A stretch of DNA of 64,000 bases from Nitrospirota bacterium (GCA_963741205.1 CAVUHW010000031.1:1-64000); one strand, 5' to 3'; counted from the first letter of the stretch, positions 57,860 to 63,549 are shown. Notes: generated from the letters alone by a model not told the origin. Made by a program: numbers and translations.

Positions 57860-57941
57860 TGAAGATTGAAAATTGGAAATTTTAAAATGAAGCATGAAAT
57901 CGGGGACAGAATCTAATTTTAAATTTCCGATTTTCAATTCA
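57860..57941. repeat. Inverted heptamer array, family B (AAATTGG / CCAATTT-like)
   Basis: AGATTGA AAATTGG AAATTTT...TAATTTT AAATTTC CGATTTT CAATT. Confidence 0.8.
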
Positions 57942-58871
57942 GCAGCCAACGCTGAAGAGCGTTTCCTTCATGCTCCTCTGGTCTTCCACATTCAGTATCT
58001 TGGCGTCCTTGACAATCCGCTTCACGAGGCCCGAAAGCACCTTGCCTGGGCCGATCTCGATGAAGGTATCGAAGCCTTCGGCCGTCATTGCATTGATGGA
58101 GTCCTCCCAATACAGGGGAGCGCTGATCTGTTTTATGAGCGACGGCCGGAGTTCGGACGCCGACCTAAGAAACTTCGCGTCCGCATTATTCACGACCGGA
58201 ATGCGGAGCTCTTTTATCGCTATCTTCTCAAGCTCGATCGCAAGCCGCTTGCCCGCCTCGTTCATCATGGCGCAGTGCGACGGAACGCTTACCGCCAGCG
58301 GAATAACCTTCTTGGCGCCCGCGATCCTGGCAAGTTCCATGGCCTTTTCTACGGCCGCTTTCTCTCCCGCGATCACAATCTGGCCAGGCGAGTTGTAATT
58401 TGCAGGGGCAACTATACCATTATTAGCCGCTTCATGGCAAGTTTTTTCTACGTCCTGCCGTGTCATGCCGAGGATCGCGGCCATGAGCCCCGTTCCCGCG
58501 GGGACCGCCTCCTGCATGTAGCGCCCGCGCTTTTGCACCAGCATGACGGCGTCCGCGAGCTCGAATCCGCCGGCGGCCGTTATCGCCGTATATTCACCAA
58601 GGCTGTGTCCGGCCACCGCGGCAGCCTCCAAGCCCCTGCGTTCGAGAGGACGCAGGATCGCGATGCATGCGGCGAGGATTGCGGGTTGCGTATTTTCTGT
58701 CAGGTTCAGCTTTTCGATGGGACCGTGAAGGCAGAGGTGCTCAAGATCGTAACCGAGCGAAGAAGCGGCAATGTCGAAGACCTCTTTCGATTCCTTGAAG
58801 TTCTCGATGAATTCCTTAGCCATGCCCGCGTACTGAGAGCCCTGGCCGGGAAAGAGAAAGGCGATTTTCAT
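57939..58871 (-). CDS. fabD: Malonyl-CoA-ACP transacylase
   Basis: FPGQGSQ, GHSLGEY, ANYN, VSVPSH, EIGPGKVL. Confidence 0.96.
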   Translation of the reverse strand: MKIAFLFPGQGSQYAGMAKEFIENFKESKEVFDIAASSLGYDLEHLCLHGPIEKLNLTENTQPAILAACIAILRPLERRGLEAAAVAGHSLGEYTAITAAGGFELADAVMLVQKRGRYMQEAVPAGTGLMAAILGMTRQDVEKTCHEAANNGIVAPANYNSPGQIVIAGEKAAVEKAMELARIAGAKKVIPLAVSVPSHCAMMNEAGKRLAIELEKIAIKELRIPVVNNADAKFLRSASELRPSLIKQISAPLYWEDSINAMTAEGFDTFIEIGPGKVLSGLVKRIVKDAKILNVEDQRSMKETLFSVGC

Positions 58872-58907
58872 AAGTTGTTTACCTGTAAAGATTCAAGCCC
58901 GGCTGTT

Positions 58908-58975
58908 AGATGCTGGATGACGTATGCTGGATGCTTGATAAAGGCGTCGGATATGCGGCATCCGGTATCGACGCC
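58908..58975. repeat. Inverted heptamer array, family B (GATGCTG)
   Basis: GATGCTG GATGACG TATGCTG GATGCTT...GGCATCC GGTATC. Confidence 0.65.
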
Positions 58976-60162
58976 TATCCCCGCATCTCCCGTATTTTCT
59001 TGATCATGATCGGCAGGACTTCATGGACGTCGCCGACGATGCCGTATGTCGCAACGTTGAAGATGGGCGCCTCGGGGTCCTTATTGATGGCCACGATCAC
59101 TTCCGACGACTGCATGCCGGCGACATGCTGGATAGCACCGGAGATGCCGCAGGCGATATAAAGCTTGGGGCAGACGGTCTTGCCGGTCTGTCCCACCTGA
59201 TGGGGATAGGGGACCCATCCCTCATCAACCGCTCCTCTCGTCGCAGCGACCGCGCCGCCGAGGGCTTTTGCGAGTTCCTCGATAAGATAAAAGTTTTTGG
59301 CGCTTCCGAGACCGCGTCCGCCGGCCACGACGATGTCCGCTTCGCAGATGTTTACTGTCTCGCCCAATTCTTCCACTGTCTTCATGACCCTGGTCCGGAG
59401 GTCTCCGGACTGCGTATACCTGATCTCGATGACCTCGCCGGTCCGGGAGCCGTCACGCACGGCAGGCTTCATCACCTTGTGCCGGACCGTGGCCATCTGA
59501 GGCCGGTGGTTCGGCGTCACGATGGTGGCCATGATGTTTCCGCCGAACGCGGGCCGTGTCTGGAGCAGGTGGCCGTTCTCGCCGTCGATGTCGAGCGCCG
59601 TGCAATCAGCCGTAAGGCCGGCATACAGAGCGGCAGCTACCTTGGGGAAGAAGGACCGGCCTATGGCCGTGGCGCCGGCGAGGATGATCTCGGGTTTGTG
59701 CTGGTGGGCGAGCGTCGTCAGGATCGCGGCGTAGGAGTCGTCATTGAAGTCCTTGAGCGCGGGATCATCGGCGACGTACACGATGTCGGCGCCGTGCGCG
59801 ATGAGTTCCTCTGCCTTGTCCCTGATGCCCGAGCCGATGAATACCGCCGACAGCTTGGTTTTTCTTTTATCGGCCAGTTTCCTTCCCTCACCGAGAAGTT
59901 CCAAGGCCACGCTGGCAATGCCGCCCTTGTGCTGTTCGGCAAAGACCCATACGCCCTTGTACGCGGAAAGGTCGGCGAGGGGGCCGGCCTCTTCCTCTCT
60001 CTCAATGGCCTTGAACTCGCAGACCTCGATGCAGGCTCCGCACATGGTGCAGGCTTCGGTGATGAAGGCCTTGCCGTCCTTCATTTCTATAGCGCCGAAG
60101 GGGCACGCGGTCACGCATTTTTCGCAGCACTCACATTTGTCCGATATGACGCGAACGCTCAC
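58975..60162 (-). CDS. etfA: Electron transfer flavoprotein alpha subunit with N-terminal 2[4Fe-4S] ferredoxin domain
   Basis: GTG start after [50 protein letters not shown]. Confidence 0.95.
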
Positions 60163-62370: not shown

Positions 62371-62385
62371 TAAGTCCTCCGAAAA

Positions 62386-62564
62386 AAAATTGGAAATTGC
62401 CTGCACCCAGCGGTTACGAGCCTGCGGCCAGCATTTATGAGTGCATCGCGCGAATGCAGGCTGTGCGGCAGCGCGAGTGCAGGGCGAAGATTAGAAATTG
62501 GAAATTTCAAAATTTTATTGGGAAGGAGATTGCAATATCCAATCTTCAATTTCCAATTTTCAAT
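62386..62564. repeat. Family B heptamer array containing doubly nested module F
   Basis: AAATTGG repeats interrupted by CCTGCACCCAGCG...GAGTGCAGGG (62400-62484); complementary CCAATTT-like arm. Confidence 0.85.
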
Positions 62565-62568
62565 GCTG

Positions 62569-63549
62569 TTACCATCTCACCAACGCCGAGGCCCAGGTAA
62601 GCCCCCCGCCGAAGGCCTCGAACAGAAGGAGGTGATTTTTTTTGATCCTGTTGTCGCGGACCGCCTCATCGAGGGCCATGGGGATCGATGCCGCGGACGT
62701 GTTCCCGTATTTCGGAAGCGTGAGCACGACCTTTTCCATGGGCATGTTGAGCCGCTGCGCCATGGCCTGGATGATCCTCAGGTTTGCCTGGTGTGGAACG
62801 AGGTAGTCGATCTGTTCCGGCTTCACCTTGTTATGCTTCAGCGCCTCCTGCGCCACTCCCTCGAGCGCGCGTACAGCCGCCTTGAAGGTCTCGTTGCCCT
62901 TCATCCTGATGAAGTGCATCCTTTTCCGGATGGTATCGTGGGACGCCGGGTGTTGGGCGCCGCCGCCGGGAACATGGATCAAGTCCCCGAGCGATCCGTC
63001 GGAATGCAGGTGCGTCGAGAGGATCCCGCGCTTGCCCGCGTGCCGTTGGATGACGACCGCGCCCGCGCCGTCTCCGAAGAGAATGCAGGTCGTTCGATCC
63101 TCCCAGTCCGTGAACCGCGAGAGGATCTCGGCGCCGACGAGAAGGATGTTCTTATACAAGCCGGACCTGATGAAAGCGTCCGCGACGGACATCCCATAGA
63201 TGAAACCGGAACACGCGGCATAGATATCGAAGGCGGCCGCCTTTCGGGCTCCGAGCTTTTCCTGAAGCACGCAGCTCATGCTCGGCAGGATCATGTCCGG
63301 CGTCATGGTGGCCACCAGGATGAGGTCCAGCTCATCCGCCCCCAGACCGGCGGCCTTGAGGGCCTTCTTGCCCGCCTCGTAGGCGAGGTCCGACGTTGTC
63401 TGGCCTTTTTCCGCGATTCTGCGTTCCTTGATGCCCGTCCGCTCGGTGATCCACTCGTCGCTCGTGTCCACGAGCTTTTCCAGATCGAGGTTGGTAATGA
63501 CCTTCTTCGGCGCGTACGAGCCGGTGCCTGTTATCCGTGCATGGATCAT
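62569..63549 (-). CDS. fabH: Beta-ketoacyl-ACP synthase III
   Basis: DTSDEWITERTGI, AACSGF, LFGDGAGA, PHQANLRI, GNTSAAS, FGGGLTW. Confidence 0.96.
   Translation of the reverse strand: MIHARITGTGSYAPKKVITNLDLEKLVDTSDEWITERTGIKERRIAEKGQTTSDLAYEAGKKALKAAGLGADELDLILVATMTPDMILPSMSCVLQEKLGARKAAAFDIYAACSGFIYGMSVADAFIRSGLYKNILLVGAEILSRFTDWEDRTTCILFGDGAGAVVIQRHAGKRGILSTHLHSDGSLGDLIHVPGGGAQHPASHDTIRKRMHFIRMKGNETFKAAVRALEGVAQEALKHNKVKPEQIDYLVPHQANLRIIQAMAQRLNMPMEKVVLTLPKYGNTSAASIPMALDEAVRDNRIKKNHLLLFEAFGGGLTWASALVRW

Follow-up and report, generated by a model that had tools for sequence, protein, structure and literature searches.

A Bcd/EtfAB-type gene trio inside a Nitrospirota fatty-acid synthesis operon as a candidate enoyl-ACP reductase

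Four families of enoyl-acyl carrier protein (ACP) reductase (ENR) are known, and the enzyme is a classical antibacterial target. Here we analyzed three adjacent genes, acd, etfB and etfA (the trio), which encode an acyl-CoA dehydrogenase (ACAD) family protein and two electron transfer flavoprotein (Etf) subunits and which lie inside a type II fatty-acid synthesis (FAS-II) operon of a Nitrospirota bacterium. The window, that is, the whole stretch of DNA analyzed (64,000 nucleotides), corresponds to bases 1-64000 of contig C31 (CAVUHW010000031.1) of a metagenome-assembled genome (MAG; GCA_963741205.1) of 4.27 Mb in 50 contigs, 84.5% complete with 4.9% contamination. The closest relatives in public databases come from records titled Nitrospirota or Thermodesulfovibrionales. 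The closest described complexes are clostridial Bcd-EtfAB (PDB 5ol2; 4l1f and 4kpu from Acidaminococcus) and the caffeyl-CoA reductase CarCDE of Acetobacterium woodii (6fah). From gene content and sequence comparison, we place at roughly 0.65 the probability that the trio is the ENR of FAS-II in this bacterium, replacing FabI, FabK, FabL and FabV.

The trio and its described relatives

The operon reads plsX-fabH-acd-etfB-etfA-fabD-fabG-acpP-fabF-rnc, all on the minus strand. A first-pass annotation of this DNA had given the same order and orientation, and ORF (open reading frame) listing together with Pfam and NCBIfam scans bore both out. The trio is framed on one side by fabH (62569-63549, minus strand; beta-ketoacyl-ACP synthase III, 326 residues), recognized by TIGR00747 (453 bits, cut-off 292.1), NF006829 (467 bits) and Pfam ACP_syn_III, and on the other by fabD (57939-58871, minus strand; malonyl-CoA:ACP transacylase, 310 residues; TIGR00128, 339.8 bits, cut-off 260.9). 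Between them lie acd (61213-62370), etfB (60255-61040) and etfA (58975-60162), all minus strand and encoding 385, 261 and 395 residues. Likely starts are ATG 62370 for acd (GGAGG upstream), ATG 61040 for etfB and GTG 60162 for etfA (AAGGAG upstream), and a Shine-Dalgarno-like sequence precedes each of the three.

The acd product, a Bcd-like flavoprotein that we propose as the enoyl-ACP reducing subunit, has all three ACAD domains (N, M and C; Pfam Acyl-CoA_dh_N, Acyl-CoA_dh_M and Acyl-CoA_dh_1). Its best relative in the PDB is 5ol2_C (416.5 bits, residues 6-371 aligned), followed by 4l1f, and it is nearer to Bcd than to CarC (320 bits). It has the same fold as Bcd and keeps the glutamate of the YEGT motif, which we take to be the catalytic base; this residue does not vary among 42 orthologs and has aligned counterparts in 5ol2_C and 4l1f_A. 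The best NCBIfam match is AcrC, acryloyl-CoA reductase (NF042972), at 464.2 bits, below the cut-off of 640; EtfA (357 bits against 600 for AcrA) and EtfB (240 against 475 for AcrB) likewise remain below theirs. The EtfB and EtfA cores are homologous to those of Bcd-EtfAB (205-323 bits), but a fused 2x[4Fe-4S] domain in the EtfA of the trio is not covered by 5ol2_A (331 residues) or 4kpu_A (346 residues). The trio also differs from Bcd-EtfAB in lying in a FAS-II operon and not next to crotonase, hbd or thiolase genes, in having many carriers without a crotonase-family match, and in its proposed substrate, which would be ACP-bound and span all chain lengths of fatty-acid synthesis.

CarD (6fah_B, 268 bits) and CarE (6fah_A, 429 bits) are the closest solved relatives of EtfB and EtfA. 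EtfB (Pfam ETF), of the type found in bifurcating complexes, carries DRAFAGADTWAT and GKQAIDGDTAQVGP, two motifs already reported in the first-pass annotation and recovered in our translation; its stretches DRAF(A/G)GADTWATS and QAIDGDTAQVG align to CarD of caffeyl-CoA reductase, and the motifs presumably mark the second flavin adenine dinucleotide (FAD). Among solved structures, EtfB scores best with CarD, 7koe, 5ol2_B, LctB and 4kpu_B (205-268 bits), whereas human and Paracoccus ETF do not exceed 93 bits. EtfA (Pfam ETF, ETF_alpha and Fer4) has two Cys clusters and a Fer4 pair in its N-terminal part, which together with the CarE match upholds the earlier description of a fused, CarE-like 2[4Fe-4S] domain. 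Since the alignment, which pairs query residues 28-416 with CarE residues 2-391, starts at CarE residue 2, the ferredoxin domain is common to both proteins. This composition fits a bifurcating enoyl-thioester reductase, in which NADH (reduced nicotinamide adenine dinucleotide)-dependent reduction of ferredoxin would be expected by analogy. The two systems differ in context, which is lipid synthesis for the trio and caffeate respiration for CarCDE.

The three proteins match ACAD, ETF and Fer4 families only and have no homology to FabI, FabL, FabK or FabV. FabK, the flavin mononucleotide (FMN)-dependent ENR II (TIGR03151), does the job proposed for the trio, but it is an NMO-family protein (PF03060) encoded by one gene, unrelated to a three-gene ACAD and Etf system and with no counterpart to the proposed ferredoxin coupling. 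FabI and FabL are of the short-chain dehydrogenase/reductase (SDR) type and catalyze the same proposed reaction with an unrelated fold and unrelated cofactors. FabI is excluded by the trio in Nitrospirota and Desulfobulbia, whereas a FabL-type protein co-occurs with it in most of the latter. FabX of Helicobacter pylori (7e1q; FMN and [4Fe-4S]) also acts at the enoyl/acyl-ACP couple of FAS-II, according to the accessible part of PMC8626469; it differs in being an oxidative and isomerizing enzyme of the NMO family, and the present genome encodes its homolog separately, on contig C6. In the full-text literature searched, a scope with most subscription journals and supplements outside it, no ACAD/Etf system was described as an ENR and the operon was not noted. 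The accessible text of PMC6349859 calls Margulisbacteria and Saganbacteria genes putative Bcd/EtfAB, with no link there to lipid synthesis.

Search for known ENRs, synteny and phyletic distribution

The trio is most likely the ENR because it lies inside the fab operon of a genome without a known enzyme for that step. On contig C31 the SDR model adh_short_C2 matched fabG only and the FabK model matched nothing, as expected from the earlier remark that the operon holds no known ENR. Across the genome adh_short_C2 gave nine matches in eight genes. Neither FabI nor FabL models were among the best 25 NCBIfam families of any of these eight genes in the 84.5% complete assembly, and the seven genes other than the operon fabG had FabG or generic SDR families as their best match; as a positive control, E. 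coli FabI scored 595 bits on its own model. No true FabK was found in this genome, where the sole match to the FabK model reached 105-107 bits against a cut-off of 453. The FabV models PF12242 (this genome) and NF010177 (41 genomes) gave zero matches, as they did in control genomes, so that absence of FabV is unsupported. FabZ is present on contig C27. In sum, the genome-wide check suggested by the first-pass annotation found FabI, FabL and true FabK neither here nor in complete relatives.

One gene was considered as a hidden ENR and ruled out. It lies on contig C6 (76002-77240; L135:8000-9235, minus strand) and encodes an NMO-family protein of 366 residues with a Cys-rich C-terminal part. This protein is homologous to FabX over its full length (222.8 bits with 7e1q, 79 with a FabK structure), it has the housekeeping neighbors prs, ychF, ribF and a tRNA synthetase gene, and similar matches occur in genomes with FabI or FabK. 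The latter are NMO-family ORFs of 366-475 residues that score 87-96 bits on the FabK model in G025, G028 and G037. If these are also FabX homologs, the unsaturation step would be covered whichever ENR is used. In the accessible text of PMC8626469, which describes FabX and gives the code 7E1Q twice, the H. pylori enzyme reverses the ENR step and requires oxygen, with no other acceptor known. The C6 homolog may use a different electron acceptor, the lineage being presumably anaerobic.

To follow the locus in relatives, 41 genomes were searched, and 29 had an acd ortholog at E<=1e-100. In 26 of these 29 loci acd is flanked by fabH and etfB, and since this adjacency is kept, the arrangement is not due to chance. 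Within the family, acd identity is 86-93% wherever the whole protein was matched. A pattern scan of the GTDB species collection (genome_contigs) returned at least 600 stretches, 591 of them confirmed, from which we analyzed the best 80 loci (66-93% identity). Here acd stands on the same strand as FAS-II genes in 43 loci; by neighborhood, 35 have fab and etf genes with acd, eight fab genes only and 14 etf genes only, and acd is alone in 23. According to record titles, the fab-linked loci belong to Nitrospirota, Thermodesulfobacteriota, Omnitrophota, Rokuibacteriota, Margulisiibacteriota, Saganbacteria and Actinomycetota, and they include a cultivated carrier, Desulfogranum marinum DSM 2058. The synteny, whose conservation had been put forward as a check, is thus kept in relatives and across phyla.

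Two relatives, G036 (a complete genome) and G027, have an unlinked acd, and etfB-etfA still stand directly before fabD. Their single, ferredoxin-fused etfA is 59-60% identical and belongs to the etfB-etfA-fabD operon. In G036 the order appears to be pdxJ-acpS-etfB-etfA-fabD (L143, G036:C1:1050000-1069999, positions 7867-12031; pdxJ and acpS read from their first residues only), and acd stands alone about 380 kb away. In six further loci (L076, L086, L089, L111, L116 and L121) acd comes right after plsX with no adjoining fabH match; such plsX-acd loci were seen in several Thermodesulfobacteriota and 'delta proteobacterium' records. The etf genes are also absent from L089, L116 and L121, so the partners must be encoded elsewhere or differ.

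We then compared the distribution of the trio with that of known ENRs in a Nitrospirota sample of 151 genomes with a completeness of 90% or more, to which the genome of the window was added. Exactly one acd ortholog per genome (E<=1e-150; 71-93% identity) was found in 84 of the 151, in 14 families: 35 of 38 genomes in f1 and every genome in f3 (7), f4 (2), f11 (12), f12 (1), f13 (3), f14 (1), f15 (10), f17 (3), f19 (3), f21 (1), f22 (2), f23 (2) and f24 (1). No ortholog was detected at this threshold in the ten other families of the sample. Among the three f1 genomes without a full match, G018 has a split gene. FabI (E<=1e-35) was found in 48 of the 151 genomes, that is, throughout f5 (6), f6 (2), f7 (1), f8 (5), f9 (25), f10 (7) and f18 (2). 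Overlap was nil from either side (0 of 84 carriers, 0 of 48 FabI genomes), and no family holds both. FabK above the cut-off was confined to f2 (3 of 3) and f7 (1 of 1). These data show that the ortholog and FabI or true FabK are mutually exclusive across the sample, in line with the anticorrelation the first-pass annotation had proposed to look for.

The most telling single result concerns the position of FabK. G025 and G034 (f2) and G030 (f7) have a FabK that scores 484-501 bits, above the cut-off, and its gene is placed precisely between fabH and fabD, the slot that the trio occupies in the present operon. Matches below the cut-off (156-258 bits) came from f1 (three genomes) and from f21 and f20 (one genome each); those of the f1 genomes (G018, G010 and G004) were rejected as ENR candidates, their loci having no fab neighbors. 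The twelve f16 genomes lack the ortholog, FabI and FabK altogether. Four of them were examined and each has an SDR of about 270 residues, one of which, when scanned, had FabL as its best family at 161 bits against a cut-off of 328. At a loose threshold, no carrier among the 41 relatives had a FabI-like match above 57.5 bits. Altogether, 84 of the 151 Nitrospirota genomes are without FabI and true FabK, and 29 of the 84 were checked loosely enough to exclude a FabL-type protein as well.

A similar pattern was seen in Desulfobulbia, the class around Desulfogranum, where 58 of 61 genomes have one ortholog (57-69% identity). True FabI occurs only in G175 and G218 (356 and 373 bits), the ortholog is absent from both, and G175 has no EtfA match either. 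In G171, the third genome without the ortholog, the contig ends about 1.5 kb from the etfA ortholog, and for this reason acd was probably lost to assembly. No FabL-type match was obtained in the two Desulfobulbia genomes whose FabI is E. coli-like (63-67% identical). Neither FabI nor a FabK-like gene was found in G042 (a 1.1-Mb Omnitrophota chromosome) or G043 (a deltaproteobacterial chromosome). Twelve further carriers had no FabK above the cut-off; true FabI was present in five of them, all of these being Bacillota whose trio is unlinked. A quick maximum-likelihood tree united the 80 orthologs in one clade, with 100% support in the Shimodaira-Hasegawa-like approximate likelihood-ratio test (SH-aLRT), apart from paralogs 44-45% identical. 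All 43 fab-linked rows fall within a group of 68 rows that does not include the Bacillota, a group with only 88% SH-aLRT support in a tree whose root rests on long branches.

Proposed mechanism and competing explanations

Comparative genomics thus supports the ENR interpretation of the first-pass annotation through the vacant ENR step, the synteny, the exclusion of known enzymes and the occurrence of FabK in the same slot. Non-orthologous displacement of the ENR by a complex of the Bcd/CarCDE type is the most economical explanation. By analogy with Bcd-EtfAB and CarCDE, NADH would reduce the second FAD, on EtfB. One electron would then pass through the FAD of EtfA to that of the dehydrogenase, which would reduce the trans-2-enoyl thioester made by FabZ on AcpP, and the other, low-potential electron would leave through the two [4Fe-4S] clusters fused to EtfA toward ferredoxin. 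Each elongation cycle would spend two NADH and return one reduced ferredoxin. The ACP-bound substrate and the direction of the reaction are predicted from the same analogy, and the proposed reduction of ferredoxin has a single source, the resemblance of EtfB and EtfA to CarDE and to further Etfs from bifurcating complexes. Provided that the trio is the ENR, we regard bifurcation as somewhat favored.

Several observations weigh against an ENR role. The acd product most resembles enzymes of CoA esters and falls far under the cut-offs for MbtN (81 bits against 700) and RedW (260 against 650), two ACAD-family dehydrogenases acting on acyl carriers; PigA (239 against 500) is also below its cut-off, and the prolyl-ACP dehydrogenase 4irn reaches 196 bits, compared with 416 for Bcd. 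An SDR with a score of 92-121 bits against E. coli FabI is present in 49 of the 61 Desulfobulbia, 48 of them carriers of the ortholog. The one that was scanned (L154 in G181:C5, 1453-2244) exceeded the cut-off of the FabL model (336 against 328), and this co-occurrence means that the ortholog is not always the sole ENR candidate. This FabL-type gene adjoins a metK-like gene in G181, a genome that also has a fab-linked ortholog. One Rokuibacteriota carrier has a FabK-like gene of 338 bits, and FabK-like genes of 179 and 195 bits, below the cut-off, stand between acpP and fabF within the trio cluster itself in the Margulisiibacteriota locus L112 and in L078, which comes from a MAG titled actinobacterium. 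True FabI (220-245 bits) is present in five of eight Bacillota genomes with a 68-71% identical, fab-unlinked trio. Since multiple ENRs per genome are common, co-occurrence of FabL- or FabK-like genes weakens the case without refuting it. Furthermore, 55 of the 84 Nitrospirota carriers were searched for FabI-like proteins only at E<=1e-35, which would miss the FabL type. As the genomes are related, the counts overstate independent support, and the Nitrospirota pattern may reflect a few ancient switches only. The genome studied is itself incomplete, with frame changes in fabF and plsX, and co-transcription of the operon is putative, being in doubt because the spacers measure 72-210 bp and contain hairpin-forming repeats.

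The trio could instead be an ordinary CoA-ester enzyme of the Bcd-EtfAB type. With crotonyl-CoA or a different enoyl-CoA as the compound reduced, it would make short acyl-CoA primers for FabH or serve in butyrate metabolism or beta-oxidation, and primer supply would account for its location among the fab genes. The best family and structure matches are all to CoA-ester enzymes (AcrC at 464 bits, 5ol2 and 4l1f at 398-416), the Bacillota trio stands outside fab operons, with FabI also encoded in five of the eight genomes tested, and the present genome has crotonase and 3-hydroxyacyl-CoA dehydrogenase genes elsewhere. Against this, 41 of the 84 Nitrospirota carriers had no match to the crotonase family ECH_1 at E<=1e-10, which makes a CoA pathway unlikely, and no source of enoyl-CoA was found in the near-complete G036, G027 and G042 in a search with ECH_1 and 3HCDH_N that left MaoC-type hydratases outside its scope. 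All three genomes keep FabZ, and G036 showed only one ACAD candidate in a first-look search. Searches by tblastn with own-genome queries located no crotonase or 3-hydroxyacyl-CoA dehydrogenase gene within about 8 kb of acd in the best 80 loci. The loci in which acd follows plsX without an adjoining fabH match also speak against primer supply, and a CoA-ester function leaves unexplained both the exclusion of FabI and FabK and the presence of FabK in the same slot. The primer-supply and catabolic alternatives offered in the first-pass annotation therefore lose ground, and we consider a CoA-ester function improbable. Still less credible is an oxidative, FabX-like acyl-ACP dehydrogenase that would supply trans-2-enoyl-ACP for anaerobic unsaturated fatty acids or lipid modification, with Etf as acceptor and an unrecognized protein as the true ENR. 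ACADs are dehydrogenases by default, members with carrier-bound substrates exist (NCBIfam models MbtN and RedW), and FabX sets a precedent for running the ENR step in reverse (PMC8626469, in its accessible part). This explanation predicts neither the FabI/FabK exclusion nor FabK in the same slot, the genome already has its full-length FabX homolog, the NMO matches beside FabI or FabK would cover unsaturation if they too are FabX homologs, and the Etf is of the NADH-linked type of bifurcating complexes, not of the respiratory type.

If the trio is the ENR, it might also work without bifurcation and conserve no energy, with enoyl-ACP receiving electrons either from NADH or, by way of the fused clusters, from reduced ferredoxin. 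We judge this unlikely, though the strongest of the competing explanations. AcrABC is the best NCBIfam match for acd and EtfA and the second-best for EtfB, and we assume that this acryloyl-CoA reductase does not bifurcate. The Bcd/Etf of Margulisbacteria and Saganbacteria was judged unlikely to bifurcate in the accessible text of PMC6349859. The relatives of EtfB argue against this explanation, its five best scoring far above the mitochondrial and Paracoccus proteins, and the ferredoxin domain has a full-length counterpart in CarE. We take the complexes of CarD, 7koe, 5ol2, LctB and 4kpu to bifurcate or confurcate.

Taken further, these data raise the possibility of a fifth, unrelated ENR class, an electron-bifurcating acyl-ACP dehydrogenase/EtfAB that many strictly anaerobic lineages would use as their only ENR, among them Thermodesulfovibrionia-like Nitrospirota, Omnitrophota, some Thermodesulfobacteriota and others. 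We advance this broader proposal tentatively, its odds being somewhat short of even. Should the trio be the missing enzyme, this would close a gap in the metabolic reconstruction of these anaerobes, provide lipid synthesis with a non-homologous replacement at one of its core steps, and extend flavin-based electron bifurcation from catabolism to an anabolic housekeeping pathway. The energy and redox cost of making membranes would have to be re-estimated for energy-limited anaerobes, and with bifurcation fatty-acid synthesis would become partly energy-conserving.

Remaining genes, spacers and other clusters

The present genome has a single EtfB and a single complete EtfA, and the ACAD homologs that it encodes besides acd share 38% and 29% identity with the latter. 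Downstream of fabD, all on the minus strand, lie fabG (57105-57851; 3-oxoacyl-ACP reductase, 248 residues; TIGR01830, 340.3 bits, cut-off 297.75) and acpP (56784-57026; acyl carrier protein, 80 residues; NF002149, 135 bits, cut-off 106), whose DSL motif is invariant in 12 aligned orthologs. They are followed by fabF (55418-56711; beta-ketoacyl-ACP synthase II), seen as two overlapping ORFs that are frame-split near 56379-56455, the L042 ortholog matching frame -3 and then -1. The last gene, rnc (54727-55416; ribonuclease III), was named from its translation alone; its start overlaps the fabF stop, and it is kept 3' of fabF in related loci. At the other end, the 3' part of plsX (63549-64000, minus strand), identified by ORF listing and tblastn with the L042 ortholog, runs off the window, and its frame changes near 63790 and 63660, where the L042 ortholog matches three successive frames. 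Since other genes of the assembly are also interrupted, the frame changes of fabF and plsX are probably assembly indel errors, real pseudogenes being the alternative. Further internal stops were seen at C8:37950-38075 and C18:156446-157129.

The first-pass annotation had described the spacers as short and mostly filled by palindromic repeats. At 72-210 bp they are not very short. Inverted repeats do occur in the fabH-acd, acd-etfB, fabD-fabG and acpP-fabF spacers, but the AT-rich type is not specific to the operon. An inverted-repeat search of the window, with 25 of 50 pairs listed, gave AT-rich inverted heptad repeats (ATTGRAA-like) at 62486-62564 in the fabH-acd spacer and an AT-rich 22-nt inverted repeat (91% complementary) at 57865-57938 in the fabD-fabG spacer, where arrays of the heptad type extend over 57858-57938. 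A repeat of a different, G+C-rich kind (34 nt, 76% complementary, 27 nt between the arms) lies at 61071-61165 in the acd-etfB spacer. With up to four mismatches, the AT-rich 22-mer has 31 matches at about 15 further sites genome-wide, on contigs C12, C15, C20, C22, C26-C28, C30, C34, C38, C40, C43 and C45 and at C31 position 83261. It is a dispersed family of intergenic palindromic repeats, and these matches on many contigs rule out the AT-rich palindromes as a fab-specific operator. In a consensus scan, promoter-like sites numbered 8 against 3.7 expected and terminator-like sites 13 against 11.1 expected, too slight an excess to delimit transcription units.

Two other clusters of the genome resemble parts of FAS-II. 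At C30:47616-54465 there are crotonase-like, 3-hydroxyacyl-CoA dehydrogenase-like, ACP-like and beta-ketoacyl-ACP synthase (KAS)-like matches, and the AT-rich repeat recurs there at 47447 and 52940. C8:35046-38697 contains pieces similar to KAS together with a FabG-like gene and a FabZ-like gene that is interrupted by a stop. Both may represent specialized pathways, such as a pimeloyl-ACP route for biotin, which the accessible part of PMC10102598 describes in Desulfovibrio.

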